DNA of 63,082 nucleotides, counting the filler, from Globobulimina sp. (lineage: Eukaryota): the NCBI GenBank assembly GCA_003354225.1. It is 23 parts of 23 records of this genome, joined end to end, with 100 filler letters (N's around TTAATTAATTAA, not from the genome) between each part and the next. Parts side by side here need not be neighbours in the genome. Positions count along the whole stretch, not along the records: positions 2,750 to 5,398 come from PIVH01005532.1; 22 more parts are not named here. One strand, 5' to 3'. Below, in pieces: positions 3,280 through 16,246 of this stretch. The notes beneath the pieces are model-generated. The model saw nothing but the letters and a program-made list of their open reading frames with translations, was not told the origin of the DNA and ran no database searches. The first letter of the stretch is position 1. Each line of letters opens with the position of its first letter. A program made the position numbers and the translations under genes.

Positions 3280-5075
3280 ATGGGCTTGTGTACCTCAAAA
3301 AAAAATCAAAATTTTGGTCGTTTAGGTTCCAACCGTTCTGCTACTACTGCCGATCTAAAAGACTTTCGATTTGCAACTTCCAATGACTTTAAAATAGATT
3401 TATTGAAGAAAAATTGTAAACCACCGCCAAATATAAAATCACCATATCCTATCAATGAAATAGATCAATATTTGAATGATGTGATCGAATCGCCTCAAAA
3501 TACGAAAAAGCAAAATGGAATCATCAACGATCATTTTACAAATCTTGGTGTGAAGATTTCTTTTCTTCGTTTATTAAATGTTATCATTCAAATATTTCAT
3601 TCTTAGCAAACGGCACAATAAAAATGGAAATATTAATTTGCGGATATATTCGACACTTATTACATGAATGTAACAAAACAAAATTGATTCCATATATTAT
3701 ATTGACGACTGTCAAGAAAACCTATTTCCCTCAATATGTAGCAATAGAAATCGGTGCCTCAAACGAGTCATTTTATTCAACATTCAGAATGTCGCATTTA
3801 TTATCATCATCGGCTGCCATTCATTATAATGGTGCGCATGATGTGTGTCATGTGTCTACTATTAATGATAAAGTATATTGCACAGATCAGGAACCGCGCT
3901 CCTTTCAATGTATTGACTTTTTCACTCAACTTAAAAAGCAAAATGAAAAACAGTTTATTGATATTATTTCATACGGTATCTCAAATAAACATCTTTTTAT
4001 TTCTACCATTGACCCAAATACATGCGAACAGCACATCTTCTGTTGTGGCACAAACACTTTTGGTCAATGTGCCACCGGCGATGACAAATCGGTTTCTCAA
4101 TGGACAAAAATAAAAGATTTTTGGTCGACTAATGCCTCAAATTCAATATTAAATGTACACACTGAAAAACAGAGGATAAAAGACATAAAATGTGGGCTGT
4201 ATCATACTATTTTCCTCGGTTCGAATGGTTGTGTTTGGAGTTGTGGCCAAAATTGGGTTGGACAGTTAGGATTAGGTGAGGATATAAGGAAGGTTTGGCG
4301 GCCACAATCTGTTAAATTCCAGCAAAAAGATTTAACAACGATAACACCGATGAGTTCAGCAACAAACTTATCCACGGCGGCTGCCACAAACTTAAATAAA
4401 TCCTTTGTTGGCGATTGCAAAATGCTTTTGTTTGAAGAGTCTGTGCGAATAAAGAGTATATCCTGCGGCGATGCACATAATTTGTGTTTGGATGAGAATG
4501 GCGAGCTGTGGGTGTTTGGCCACATGGCCATAGAGAATAATATGAAGCAACACATATTTGAAGCAATAAAACATCCGTGGTTTGTGGAGAGGAAAAGAGC
4601 TCGGGAGAAAGAAGAGGATATTGGCCATGTCATAACAAAAATAAACTGCGGTTCTGATCATTCTGTTTGTTGTGATTCAAATGGATTTTGTTATTTATTT
4701 GGAACCAATGATAAAGGACAGATTGGCCATAAATATTTCTCTGTGCAATATGAGCCATATATCTTTCAACAATCAACAGACAAAGATAATAAAAATAAAT
4801 ATGTTTTTGAAAATATAAAAATTATTGATGTGGAAGCTGGACAATGTCACACTGTTTTATTAACATCAACTAATGATTTAATTACGTTTGGTTCCAATTA
4901 TTATAAACAATGTTCAACGGTGATTAAGAATAATATTGTGTGTTTTGGCCATATTTTAATGAGACATCAGGAAATTGGTATTACTTCGGATACATATATT
5001 GAACGAATTATTGCGTCTGCGAATTCAACCATTCTTATTGTTAATATGGCTAAAAAATTAAAAATTATACGTTGA
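3280..5075 (+). CDS. RCC1-repeat protein with N-terminal acylation signal (2 exons; intron 3548-3606)
   Basis: GT..AG intron joins ORFs 3280 and 3624 in frame. MGLCTS start. Repeated CGxxH...G.V..GxNxxGQ(L/C)G RCC1 motifs. Confidence 0.85.
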
Positions 5076-8700: not shown

Positions 8701-10833
8701 TTATACATTATGTTTAACATCATCATCATCGAATGCATCATCGTCAAATTCATCATCAATCTCCATATTATTATTTCCATTATCTCCATTATCAAATGAC
8801 TTGACACTCTCCGTGACCCAATTTGACGAAATCCATTCAATTTCAAATCTCTTCTTTGCAGACGAAATAGCTAATTTATAGGACACAGATGACGGAAGAC
8901 ACAGCGCGGCCCCTTTTATCACGCGCTTCTCCTCATTTTTATAAAAAGTCAATGCCACCACAACATCATCCTCATTCCCTTTCAAATCGTCACTCTCCTT
9001 CTTGGCATACAACATTTTAAATTGTCTCCGTTCCATCCATTCAATACACACAGTCACAAAATCCTTATGTTTGATCGGCTTCATTGCGCGGATCCACTCC
9101 TTCTCACTGCCCCGATATATCTTACCATTGCCGGCAAACAGGCCATAGCCACACGAATACATATTAAATGCACGCGGCAACACTTGATTTGGTGGCATTT
9201 TATCCACATTCACCACTCCGATGATAACATCCATGTATTCAATCTCAAAGCTTTCCTTTTTGATTTCCACTTCTTTTTTATGCGCATCGCTCTCCTCATT
9301 TGCAGCCGCATTCACATCCGTTTCCAATTCAATTTGTTTCCGGTCCAATAGTCGCAATCTCCACTCATATTTCCGTGGATATTTATCGCGCAAAATGTCA
9401 AAAACAACAGGTTTTATACCATACATATTCTTCCACACAGCGTTGTCTTTGGCGCTGCGTTTGATAGTAATCAGATCGTTTCTTTTCGAGGTCCAACAGG
9501 AACGAAAACAATCCCAATCCCACCGATCAAATATCGCGTAATATAAGTTAAAAAAATCAAAAAATTTGCGTGGTAAAAAAATATTGCTCCGCCCGCTGCG
9601 AATGTAACCGATGATTAATAGGTTGCGTAGGTTGTTTTCTTTGGTTTTGTCGTAGGGTTTGGTGTCGCGGTTACGTTTGCGGCGCATTCCACCGCCAAAA
9701 CTATGACCGCTGTGCGTATGGACCGCCCCCATATTGCCCCGCATGCCCATTCCACCCATACCGCCCATATCATGTCCACGCATGCTTAGTATACACATAT
9801 TTAGCAGTGGACAAAGGGTGTATTTACGTATATGATACATACCCAAACATGCCACCTAACATTTGCTCCATACCACCGCCCATCATTCCCCTCCGACCCA
9901 TGCCATGTTGCATATCCATGCCACCCATACCACCCATACCTTGTTGTTGTGACCACGACGCACCGCCACCATGGCCATGCTGATGCTGATGATGTTGCTG
10001 TTGGTGTTGTTGCATGTCATCATCAGAGTCGTCACCTTTCATGAATGCATAGTTGCCATTGGTCTCATCATCCGATTGTTTTATATATTCGTCGTTGTCT
10101 TGCTGACAAGCGTCGCATTCATTGGTCCCGATGGGATTATGCAATGTACAGCGCTGACATTCCCAGAAGTCATTGCTTGGCTCGTCCCACAGAGTGCTAT
10201 CAAATATCTTGACGCTCATTGTATACGTATCCTGTTTGCACATACAACATTTCATTGCAAATTTGGTCAATGTCCATGATAATTCTATGTGTTTTACCAT
10301 TTTTCAGTTTCAAACTGGAAAAAATAACACTGCAACACTCAAAAATGGATTTCAGTTTGAAATGGTAAATCTTTTCAGTTTCAAACTGAAAAAAAAAGTG
10401 TGTGGTTTGATACATTTTGAGTGAAAATGTGAATTATTTTTGTTAATGTGCATGCGCTTAGTTCTTAACTGTTTGTTGCTTCACAATTAGAACATGTCCA
10501 ACATTGAATATCCACAGATTTTTGTCGTGACATAGTTGCTTTTGGTGAGACAATATTGCCATCTTTATCCAATTCATATTCATCAGAATCTTCTAATTTC
10601 TCTTGTATAGGGATTCGATACTGATGGTCTGTCACATCAACATCGTCATCATCGCCCCATCCATTCCCACCATCATCAAAGCCGTCGTTATCGCCAAAAT
10701 CTGCATCTTCAAAGTCTTCATCAGCTTCATCGGCAAAATCTCCATCTGCGTCATCTTCGAAACCTGCATTGTCGTCCTCATCGTAGGAATTATCGGTGTA
10801 TTCATCTTCGTATTGTTCCTCGTCATCCGCCAT
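8701..10833 (-). CDS. Acidic N-terminus / two RanBP2-like Zn fingers / Gly-Met-His low-complexity / SPRY-like protein (3 exons; introns 10285-10469 and 9785-9842)
   Basis: Splicing joins three ORF-track entries. It restores WTCSNC..N..KCCMC and FG-MRGHD. Also contains WECQRCTLHN...CDAC and a SPRY-like IIGVV...YGLFAGNGKIY...LTFYKN. Confidence 0.72.
10293..10423. repeat. Palindrome/inverted-repeat cluster (MITE-like) inside an intron
   Basis: Two copies of the hairpin TTTTCAGTTTCAAACTG(G)AAAA. Inverted pair CACTCAAAA(A)TG at 10336 and CATTTTGAGTG ending at 10423. Confidence 0.55.
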
Positions 10834-11916: not shown

Positions 11917-13377
11917 ATGGCATCAAAGGTGTATAATAAAGAATATATTAAAGGAATTGAATTGTTAAACAGAAATTGGAATGTTGGAGATGAAATTGTG
12001 TTCAATTCAGATCCCGAAGATATTGGTAACGAATACCTGCATTTAAATTATGGTAAAATAAGAAATATCATTCTGAAGAATTGCAATAAAAATAAAGAAA
12101 TGATACATATCCATTTACCATATGGCAAAATAAGCATACCTTTGAACAGCATAACGCTACAATTCATTCCTAAAACTACTAATAACAAACATGACGATGA
12201 TGACATTGACATTGATCTCTTTAAAATCAAAAGATTTTTTGTTTATGGCACATTACGTGACGACAACGTAAATAATATGTCAATTTACACTAAAAATTGG
12301 ATCACAAAATGTAAAGCAGAAAGCGGCCGATTATATAAATTTAAATTGTTCAAAGAACGTTATGAAGATTATCCATTTGCTGTGAAAACAGGAAATAACA
12401 ATGATTACATCAATGGGCGTATAATATCGTTTGCGTATAATATTAATCACAATCTCTTTGCAACAAAGCTAGAAATTGCGGATCGAATGGAAGGATTTAT
12501 CAATGGCAAAATAGATAATTTATATGTACGCGATATTGTCGATGTGTTGAATGATTCCGGCGATATGATTCCAGCCATTGCATATTATAAAAACGTATCT
12601 ATTGAAGACATAATTCACTGTAAGCTGTATGATGAAATACCGTTTGGTGATTGGTTGAAACGGGACAGATCCAGAGATTTAAGCGAATATAACCCATCAG
12701 CTCCAATGTTACAAATGTTATCGGAAATGATGCGGAAATCCAAAGTGAATGACGAATTGATTGATTCTTTACCGTTACCACCGGAAGAATTGGAGGAGAA
12801 AAAAAGTGATCATGACACGAGTACTGATGATGAGCTCGAGATGGAATGGGAATATTTTAGGATAAGTGGTGATAATATTGCAATTATGAATGATTGTACA
12901 ACGATTAAAAAGTTTAGAAGTGGCATACATACTGCTTATGGCAAGTATATTATACGCTGTCCGAATAATTATTTATATAAATGGACATTTAAAATTATAA
13001 ATCAGCATGGAAATATTCAAAAAAAATGCCATGGTGTGTTAGCCATAGGAATTGCTTCCAAAATAATCATGCATTTAAATCAATGTTTTTATCAATATGA
13101 AGAATTTGAGAATTATGCGTATAATGTGTTTAATGGATATAAAGTGAGTCAAAATATGTTTGAACAATATGCGATTCGATCTAAAATAAATGATGTTATT
13201 GAAATGGAATTGAATATGAAAAAATGTACTTTGAGTTATTATGTTAATGGGACATATCAAGGTGTTGCTTTTGATGATGTTATAAACAATAAAAATATAA
13301 GCTATCAAATGGCAGTTTCATTGGAGAAACATAAGGATGAGATTAGTTTGCTAAATTTTGAAATAATACAACAATGA
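11917..13377 (+). CDS. Gamma-glutamylcyclotransferase (AIG2-like) + SPRY-like domain protein
   Basis: FFVYGTLR, ADRMEG, LYVR and GDWLKR mark the GGCT domain. YKWTFKI..IGIA..DVIEMELN..TLSYYVNG..GVAF marks the SPRY domain. Confidence 0.8.
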   Translation: MASKVYNKEYIKGIELLNRNWNVGDEIVFNSDPEDIGNEYLHLNYGKIRNIILKNCNKNKEMIHIHLPYGKISIPLNSITLQFIPKTTNNKHDDDDIDIDLFKIKRFFVYGTLRDDNVNNMSIYTKNWITKCKAESGRLYKFKLFKERYEDYPFAVKTGNNNDYINGRIISFAYNINHNLFATKLEIADRMEGFINGKIDNLYVRDIVDVLNDSGDMIPAIAYYKNVSIEDIIHCKLYDEIPFGDWLKRDRSRDLSEYNPSAPMLQMLSEMMRKSKVNDELIDSLPLPPEELEEKKSDHDTSTDDELEMEWEYFRISGDNIAIMNDCTTIKKFRSGIHTAYGKYIIRCPNNYLYKWTFKIINQHGNIQKKCHGVLAIGIASKIIMHLNQCFYQYEEFENYAYNVFNGYKVSQNMFEQYAIRSKINDVIEMELNMKKCTLSYYVNGTYQGVAFDDVINNKNISYQMAVSLEKHKDEISLLNFEIIQQ

Positions 13378-14684: not shown

Positions 14685-14752
14685 ATATACTTATTTATAA
14701 ATATAGCTTGACAAAAATAGAGAAAAGTGCAGACAATCCAAAATCTTGAAGA

Positions 14753-16246
14753 ATGTCGCAGCACAACGGTATCTTTGTGGAGTGTTTAGCAAAAAATGCA
14801 AAAGCACAGTGGGGATTAAATCAATTATTGTACTATCCGAGAGAAAATTGTTTATTATTTATCAACGAAGCGTTTGGACACAAAAGTGAATTCCATAACG
14901 CATGGATCTATAAATATGATTTAGAAACAAAAATATTTGGAGTGTTTATGGTATATCCATCGGCATCACAACAAGTCAAAGGAACTGGCTTTCAAAGTGC
15001 AATAAATTTAGAAACCGATGAATTATACGTTGTTGGCCCAGAATCATTTGTAATAAATTTAAGACAGAAACAGATGGTTTTGGATCTCCGGAATGATAAT
15101 GAATTTTTTATTCGTTATCCTCAAGTAATATGGATGCAGTCCATCAACAAAATCCAAGCAACCGCAACGGGATCGGTTCACTATCAATCTGGCGATGGAT
15201 CCATTGCTTATACAACCAATCACATTGAATTTGATGCAGAACGAGGTGCTTTTTTTCCAATTGGCGCAGTAAATGGAGCAAATGCGTCATCCTTAATTTT
15301 TATTGAAACAATGAGCAAATTGTTTTTATTTGGTGGGAATAGATCCGATTCAGTATGGAGCTGTGATGTAATTGAAGATAAGCCGTACATTTGGACGCTA
15401 TTAAACCTTAAATTGCCGACACCTGATGACTTCAACAAAATGTTTGTAAATGTGTTTGATACAGTTATTATTTGTAAAAGTGAGGATGACTCGACAAACA
15501 AGATTAGAATTTGGATATTAGATTTGTTAGACGCTGGTAATGGTTGGTATGAATGTGTGAATACGCACATATATAGCAATGGGTGGGGTAGCATGGTTGT
15601 AGCTGCTGACGGTTTTTTATATTTTGCAGTGAACTACAAAAGTTTCTCGCAGTTTTATAGGCTCAATGTTTATGATATTGTGCCGAAACCAATGTATGAG
15701 AAATACAAAAAAATGTATGTGAGTTTACTGGATGGTTATTACAGACAGGTTTATGATGATAATGATAAAGCACTGGCAACATCAGACATGTTATTGCCAC
15801 AAAGTGTGTCTACATTTGTAATACGACTCACATTTGGATTTATTATCAGTGAGGCCAATGATAAAAGAAATAATAAGAGACATATTATTAATCCACCAAT
15901 AAAAAAGCCAGCAGCTGGAGATGCTCAAATCACTCCATTTACAGCACCGGCACCATTGCCAATGTCACCAACTGCGCCCTATGCCGCTTTTGGTGTTAAT
16001 TCATTGATACTAACTCCTGGTTATCTGGATTGGTATCAAGGGCAAATAGTACAATTAAACGTGTTATTACAACGACAACAATTGGAACGTAATTTATTTT
16101 ATCAACAAGAATTATTGCAAGCGATGCATCATCAACAATTGCAACAAAAATTATTACCACCAAATGAACCAATTACAAATTCAAGCACCACAACAATTGC
16201 AACAACAACAACAACCACAACAAAGCAAAGCAAAAACGACATGTAA
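14753..16246 (+). CDS. Kelch-like beta-propeller protein with Pro/Gln/Thr-rich tail
   Basis: LFLFGG..SDSVW, IWILDL..W and YKYD..T repeats. Low-complexity C-terminus. Confidence 0.65.
   Translation: MSQHNGIFVECLAKNAKAQWGLNQLLYYPRENCLLFINEAFGHKSEFHNAWIYKYDLETKIFGVFMVYPSASQQVKGTGFQSAINLETDELYVVGPESFVINLRQKQMVLDLRNDNEFFIRYPQVIWMQSINKIQATATGSVHYQSGDGSIAYTTNHIEFDAERGAFFPIGAVNGANASSLIFIETMSKLFLFGGNRSDSVWSCDVIEDKPYIWTLLNLKLPTPDDFNKMFVNVFDTVIICKSEDDSTNKIRIWILDLLDAGNGWYECVNTHIYSNGWGSMVVAADGFLYFAVNYKSFSQFYRLNVYDIVPKPMYEKYKKMYVSLLDGYYRQVYDDNDKALATSDMLLPQSVSTFVIRLTFGFIISEANDKRNNKRHIINPPIKKPAAGDAQITPFTAPAPLPMSPTAPYAAFGVNSLILTPGYLDWYQGQIVQLNVLLQRQQLERNLFYQQELLQAMHHQQLQQKLLPPNEPITNSSTTTIATTTTTTTKQSKNDM

Follow-up and report, generated by a model that had tools for sequence, protein, structure and literature searches.

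The question raised by this locus of Globobulimina sp. (GCA_003354225.1) is what role a short two-part helical motif may play on proteins whose other domains are unrelated. The analysed stretch of DNA (63,082 nucleotides; hereafter, the window) consists of 23 separate contigs of about 2.65 kb each joined together, taken from a 70 Mb assembly of 48,370 contigs. An initial annotation noticed three copies of the motif in it and took them for the mark of a lineage-specific E3 ligase adaptor system similar to F-box or SOCS-box proteins. The three strings are present where they had been reported, at 3624-3728 (+), 9538-9621 (-) and 15722-15835 (+), on three different contigs. The motif, called the box below, belongs to a large and real module which is apparently undescribed. 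Judging from the sequence comparisons, we see an even chance that the box is an F-box-like receptor tag read by Skp1-family adaptors.

Column frequencies in 202 of 224 training sequences give the consensus LL[VI]xGYIR (block 1), a spacer of 4-19 residues (mode 9-10) and IPx[DE]Ixx[LI]CxxFY (block 2), the near-invariance of GYIR and of the proline being in part a product of how the sequences were selected. The residue before the block 2 proline is isoleucine in 81% of boxes, and an acidic residue is found two positions after it in 120 of 202. A DNA pattern for L-Phi-x-GYIR matched the assembly 216 times, compared to 80 matches of the reversed pattern. Linkage between the blocks was evaluated on 94 pattern matches in 92 loci (91 of 100 listed places were sampled). 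Phi-P-x-x-Phi-x-x-x-Phi follows within 2-24 residues in 47 of the 76 matches that have at least 20 downstream residues, against 1.3% of 14,293 control positions, so the recurrent two-part motif is real. Because a local hidden Markov model (HMM) lost sensitivity where the spacer varies, copies were scored on the two blocks instead; this two-block score gave no matches of 6 bits or more in 287,911 residues of reversed control. Window copies 1, 2 and 3 score 23.2, 15.5 and 4.0 bits; copy 1 also belonged to the training set of the score and copy 2 lies outside its training loci.

An origin of the three window strings by chance, or by convergence of amphipathic helices, could be argued from the noise-level score of copy 3 and from the roughly 80 of 216 strict pattern matches expected by chance. 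The linkage of the two blocks, the 526 profile representatives described below and the empty reversed controls leave this explanation with next to no probability: it is refuted for the family and can apply to copy 3 only. Even copy 3 is probably a degenerate box, because it occupies the same position as the canonical box of locus L028 when the two are aligned collinearly (pairwise E 0.003).

A profile of 46 boxes retrieved 526 representatives at E 0.001 or better. The match begins within 60 residues of the N-terminus in 132 of the 150 best representatives; some boxes are C-terminal or internal. Four boxes of at least 15 bits were found in a motif-blind sample of 40 contigs (274 kb), with none in the reversed control. 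Extrapolation from this sample gives about 1,000 copies in the assembly (95% range 280-2,600), where the sample consists of long contigs and alleles may raise the count. The number of copies, the 526 representatives and the many unrelated hosts bear out the idea of a much expanded modular family. Near-identical box segments are repeated within and across contigs in L034 (G000:C1579) and in L013, L076 and L082; these are recent duplications or alleles, which inflate counts. As to taxonomy, 15 of the 526 proteins were looked up, and all nine box proteins with a name among them are foraminiferal.

Other searches returned little. With the box alignment as query, a word-indexed search for homologs came up empty among 7,118 candidates; the matches of box profiles to PDB sequences were at chance level only; and the ESM Atlas had no match at 0.9 or above for either query. 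The AlphaFold model of the box alone consists of helices at 2-20 and 29-41 without tertiary packing (pTM 0.37). This model gave no useful information in fold searches, with a best Z of 3.1 in the wide search and no match in Foldseek.

Partner domains were surveyed by a Pfam scan of 64 open reading frames (ORFs) of at least 110 residues from the assembly. Binding folds are found in 17 of them (five SPRY, seven Kelch, two RCC1, and one each of MATH, TLDc and TPR), and nine encode an enzyme, motor, GTPase or chaperone (kinase, PP2C, TBC, myosin, Arf, EF-Tu, DnaJ zinc-finger, poly(A)-polymerase). The rest comprise three ubiquitin-like or UBA proteins, two weak other matches, two apparent chance matches to the pattern and 31 ORFs with no Pfam match. 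The survey of outside proteins covered 126 of 150 box proteins. SPRY, Kelch, RCC1, TLDc or WD40 domains occur in 23 of these, RasGEF, kinesin, kinase, DnaJ, E2, AAA, BACK or TIP120 in 11; three have weak or spurious matches and 89 none. The substrate-binding folds on which the initial annotation placed the box are thus frequent partners, SPRY, Kelch and RCC1 in particular, but the box is not confined to them and is carried by enzymes, motors and GTPases too. Several box proteins begin with MG..C or MGxxxS (window 3280-3300 and L002, L015, L022, L057, L064, L066 and L075; 7 ORFs by the count made). Such starts, likely acylation signals, suggest that these products may be membrane-targeted receptors. 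A separate observation is the presence of 115 actin-family matches in G000, many of them divergent; the count may include pieces and alleles.

The relation of the box to known families was approached with profiles. Pfam F-box models matched none of 46 members and none of 16 short-spacer members in searches that allowed E up to 10 and kept the HMMER filters, and no member matched a Pfam SOCS-box model either. Alignment by hhalign pairs block 2 with helix 1 of 30 F-boxes from this assembly (score 16.8 and probability 56%, with 40 column shuffles reaching no more than 7.4), which is a weak match to a single helix. The Cys..Trp signature of F-box helices 2-3 follows block 2 in one of 180 boxes and is present in 19 of 30 canonical F-boxes taken from the assembly. 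Profile alignment lent no support to a circularly permuted F-box in which block 1 would be helix 3. The BC-box consensus (S,T,P)LxxxC/S/AxxxPhi, as given in PMC4878042, is found in one of 202 boxes, with a background of 1.1%. Membership of the F-box or SOCS/BC-box families is not supported in view of the missing Pfam match and the rarity of both signatures; by these comparisons, the box belongs to neither family and probably works like a member of one.

The second line of evidence comes from the Skp1 proteins. Two family searches found nine distinct Skp1-family loci in the assembly; a tenth match is a BTB protein. In a tree of 51 rows a Skp1 clade is split from canonical Skp1 with 100/100 support. 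It includes class B (L094, G000:C37101), in which helix 7 is long and acidic and the canonical helix 8 tail is replaced, and class C (L120 and others), which ends after helix 7. In the alignment both classes keep helices 5-7 and do not have canonical helix 8, which is present in L119 and L118. PMC12101541 describes Skp1 helices 5-7 as the sufficient core of the F-box interface and helix 8 as its dispensable, variable part. The PxPN motif of strand B3, tied to Cul1 binding in PMC1257465, is present in the canonical L095 and replaced in classes B and C. L094 matches Skp1 chains at E 1e-12; its homologs are 80-95% identical in Ammonia, Bolivina, Nonionella and Elphidium, and the eight named ones among ten looked up are all foraminiferal. 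By alignment and phylogeny, then, foraminifera have a distinct Skp1 clade in which canonical helix 8 and PxPN are missing, which is a new observation. The conserved clade (L094, L120, L093, L096; P0151-P0270) merits study even without a link to the box. Some class B and class C proteins have further parts fused to them: the box, and SAM, PH, PX, Rpn13-like or, judged by eye, UBA domains.

Two unusual kinds of Skp1 sequences were encountered as well. P0223 and P0261 are mosaics (a class B front with a canonical tail and a class C front with a class B tail) which could be assembly chimeras or products of gene conversion. P0225 and P0229 are class B copies from Nonionella with a hydrophobic, signal-peptide-like N-terminus.

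Direct fusions give the box a circumstantial link to this protein family. A scored box stands immediately before the Skp1 domain in L121, L123 and L122 (in L122 it is located in a neighbouring frame, with a putative splice), that is, in three of nine Skp1-family loci against four of 163 long ORFs of unselected contigs (Fisher p 0.003). A variant box recognised by eye is inserted in the canonical-type L118. Outside the assembly, the box was found in one of 120 Skp1 homologs of near-Skp1 length (P0264), while among 29 longer homologs it is present in 11 by eye, two of these being near copies, and in four by score. Fusions were seen in Rosalina and Bolivina. Mapping of the fusion label on the tree requires three changes (3-5 in bootstrap), at least two of which are forced; an upstream element common to class B and class C fusions hints at fewer independent origins. 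On these comparisons the box-Skp1 fusions are a conserved set with two to three origins. Overall confidence in the AlphaFold model of L121 is high (pLDDT 89.6, pTM 0.84), with pLDDT of at least 95 in the Skp1 part.

Boxes also occur after N-terminal cullin fragments. In L112:238-1178 (-) the box is scored and the gene is broken by a frameshift and a stop; in L111:955-1938 (-) the frame is intact and the box is a variant identified by eye. At least two sets of cullins differ in the sequence of N-terminal helix 2 (L098, L116, L117 and L112 versus L115) and are candidate partners of the altered Skp1 clade. In the chain search L098 came nearest to Cul4 and Cul3, and nothing matched the L115 fragment.

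The observed motif, the size and mobility of its family, the likeness of block 2 to helix 1, the altered Skp1 clade and the fusions lead us to infer a mechanism in which the box would bind a Skp1-family protein and thereby promote cullin-dependent ubiquitination. Block 2 would dock in the groove of helices 5-7, as helix 1 of the F-box does, and the GYIR helix would substitute for F-box helices 2-3. The likeliest reader would be the foraminiferal Skp1 clade without canonical helix 8. Loss of this helix would be expected if the partner had helix 1 but not helices 2-3, an argument that rests on the geometry of the Skp1-Skp2 complex. The domain joined to the box, be it SPRY, Kelch, RCC1 or a copied enzyme or motor serving as bait, could then bring its target to a cullin-RING ligase, and the box-Skp1 fusions would be single-chain versions of the same arrangement. 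We also speculate, more tentatively, that a second SCF-like (Skp1-cullin-F-box) system may run parallel to F-box/Skp1/Cul1. In it about 1,000 GYIR-box receptors would be read by a dedicated Skp1 clade changed at both its F-box and its cullin surface, and the single-chain box-Skp1 fusions would be similar to BTB-type receptors. This extension is possible rather than probable.

Several observations speak against Skp1 as the reader. Ordinary F-boxes are present in the assembly (106 matches, about 40 above the cut-off), canonical Skp1 is too, and there are many cullin matches; with F-boxes and canonical Skp1 at hand, SCF needs no new tag. As PxPN, tied to Cul1 binding by PMC1257465, is lost in the divergent clade, a ligase role of the clade is itself no more than putative. 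Block 1 matches nothing in F-boxes, and block 2 fits the Cul2-box consensus as well as it fits F-box helix 1, and the helix of docking and dimerisation (D/D) domains somewhat less well. The fusions have weak points of their own. The three scored ones fall within one weakly supported clade (80/81), and if they are counted as a single event, p rises to 0.19; the L118 variant scores -11.9; most boxes in Skp1 fusions do not have the proline; and the box is the least confident folded part of the L121 model (pLDDT 64-76). Finally, kinases, PP2C, myosin, kinesin, Arf, EF-Tu and RasGEF carry the box as a graft as well, and therefore Skp1 may be one more grafted body.

This last point leads to an explanation where the box docks on one shared partner other than Skp1 (a scaffold, a chaperone, a membrane or cytoskeletal receptor, or a cullin directly) and the Skp1 fusions are a graft onto a housekeeping paralog. 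The wide span of enzyme and motor hosts would fit it well, as would the invariant GYIR block, which has no counterpart in the boxes of known cullin receptors, and the enrichment at Skp1 loci that loses significance as a single event. We nevertheless consider it unlikely, since it leaves unexplained why a Skp1 clade is altered at the F-box surface in the same organisms and why fusions are kept in both class B and class C. Another arrangement to be weighed is that of the VHL/SOCS box. Here block 1 would be a BC box changed to suit a foraminiferal Elongin C and block 2 a Cul2-type cullin box, the two-part layout being the same. According to PMC4878042, the Cul2-box consensus is Phi-P-x-x-Phi-x-x-x-Phi, precisely the pattern that block 2 meets in 47 of 76 cases against 1.3%; F-box helix 1 fits the same consensus. 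An Elongin A match above the cut-off in the assembly and the C-terminal position of some boxes are in line with such an origin. However, the BC-box consensus is found in boxes at its background rate, the SOCS-box search of the assembly gave no match above the cut-off, and the chains that L094 matches are those of Skp1, with none of Elongin C. None of five Skp1_POZ matches (from nine candidates) resembles Elongin C in a search that gives a lower bound. We therefore regard a VHL/SOCS-type origin as very unlikely.

The box could also be a self-association module of the RIIa D/D or Dpy-30 type, or a LisH-like one, that dimerises its host or pairs with box-Skp1 fusions. A helix-loop-helix that shows no tertiary packing when modelled alone would suit such a role. 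By eye, genuine RIIa/Dpy-30 copies of the assembly share with the box L-x-x-G in helix 1, a helix 2 led by P-x-D and a spacing like that of the shortest boxes. Block 2 aligns in register with the D/D profile of five foraminiferal rows (score 13.2, while 40 shuffles gave no more than 11.6), and a metagenome scan for further Dpy-30 sequences yielded one locus. In long-form dimeric BTB domains, the N-terminal extension aligns with the N-terminal part of the L121 model, though not necessarily with a box helix. One of 46 members matches LisH_TPL at E 0.035; the order of helices in LisH differs from that in the box. Against self-association, the D/D alignment is weak and limited to block 2, and five-sequence subsets of F-boxes outscore it in 27 of 30 draws (median about 15.7). 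Box profiles retrieve no D/D chain from PDB at E up to 10, whereas the five-sequence foraminiferal D/D control profile finds dozens. A hydrophobic residue precedes the proline in the box, a polar one in the D/D copies seen. Taken together, this makes self-association quite unlikely. A likeness to UBA was rejected: the box spacer can be too short, although a UBA-like ORF noticed by eye was a false match under a relaxed score.

Within the window, box copy 1 belongs to a gene on the (+) strand. Its first exon (3280-3547) is an open frame with N-terminal similarity to the paralog L002 and is covered by spliced contigs. It is followed by a predicted 59-base GT..AG intron (3548-3606), which is skipped in contigs of three of the four public runs compared (X1, X3, X4) and retained in the fourth (X5). 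Exon 2 (3607-5075) codes for the box and an RCC1 propeller, and the whole protein has 578 residues, with the box at about residues 96-131. The gene begins at 3280, and the ATG at 3624 is not its start. The product begins with MGLCTSK, presumably an acylation (membrane-targeting) start. The box of copy 1 is clear and 78% identical to that of L002. The RCC1 body is confirmed by Pfam (RCC1, RCC1_2 and WD40_RLD at 4020-4934 (+), E down to 2e-42). No RNA record is listed as carrying this gene.

Copy 2, also clear, is located in an open frame at 8704-9855 (-) coding for a Gly/Met-rich N-terminus, the box and a SPRY-like domain with an insertion (8818-9525). This domain has no Pfam match; its SPRY-like nature is supported by comparison with the alignment A10 of 15 box-SPRY proteins, box included (hhalign probability 96.8 over 198 columns, E 2.9e-10). 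The open frame at 14750-16243 (+) contains a possible beta-propeller, the degenerate copy 3 and a Q/P/T-rich tail. The Kelch assignment made for this propeller is unconfirmed, with no Pfam match and a probability of 3% (E 0.014) against 12 box-Kelch proteins. Three more frames on the (+) strand are of separate interest. At 3-2267 a 755-residue open frame resembles, by eye, a reverse transcriptase carrying a GIY-YIG-like nuclease at its C-terminus (a Penelope-type retroelement). A gamma-glutamyl cyclotransferase (AIG2-like) domain is fused to SPRY at 11917-13374, where no credible box is found. The low-GC contig at 41463-43861 carries a zinc-knuckle gag-like frame and then possibly a polymerase-like frame (by eye).

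Among the papers searched on foraminiferal F-box, Skp1 and cullin proteins, as judged from titles and the opening lines of abstracts, none described the motif or the Skp1 clade. A term search of bioRxiv 10.64898/2026.10.21.760831 gave no mention of Skp1, F-box or cullin. Perhaps 1-3% of genes in a major marine protist group carry this tag, which is absent from Pfam. If the box is read by the altered Skp1 clade, the lineage would have its own receptor-adaptor code for cullin ligases, next to F-box/Skp1, BC-box/Elongin C, BTB and DCAF/DDB1, and would offer an example of a tag and its adaptor changing together. The candidates are small: a peptide of 35-40 residues and a domain of 150 residues.

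Among known systems, the F-box (Pfam F-box-like PF12937) shares with the box a helix with hydrophobic-Pro-x-acidic residues, short length, mobility and a position mostly near the N-terminus. The SPRY, Kelch, RCC1 and WD40 domains of box hosts are shared with F-box proteins too; FBXO45, FBXO24 and the Kelch F-box proteins of plants have such SPRY, RCC1 and Kelch partners. Unlike the F-box, the box lacks the helix 2-3 signature, has an extra GYIR helix upstream of the helix-1-like block and can also be C-terminal or internal. A precedent is the poxvirus PRANC domain, a truncated F-box that in one case has as few as 13 residues and is linked to Skp1 binding (PMC3185573). PRANC follows ankyrin repeats on their C-terminal side and works with the canonical Skp1 of the host, while the box has its GYIR helix upstream and was seen with no ankyrin partner among the 64 ORFs and 126 outside proteins. 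The VHL/SOCS box resembles it in having a helix, a variable spacer and Phi-P-x-x-Phi-x-x-x-Phi (PMC4878042), and differs by its BC-box consensus. RIIa D/D (PF02197) and Dpy-30 (PF05186) are similarly short helix-loop-helix modules found on many enzymes, with helix 2 led by P-x-D; the box is distinguished from them by the spacer of 4-19 residues, the invariant YIR and the absence of a profile match to solved D/D chains. The putative reader, for its part, is like Skp1 in fold, as the L121 fusion model aligns with 1ldk_D (Z 14.6, rmsd 1.5 over 117 residues), and unlike canonical Skp1 in its separate clade, the long acidic helix 7 of class B, the end after helix 7 in class C and the replaced PxPN.
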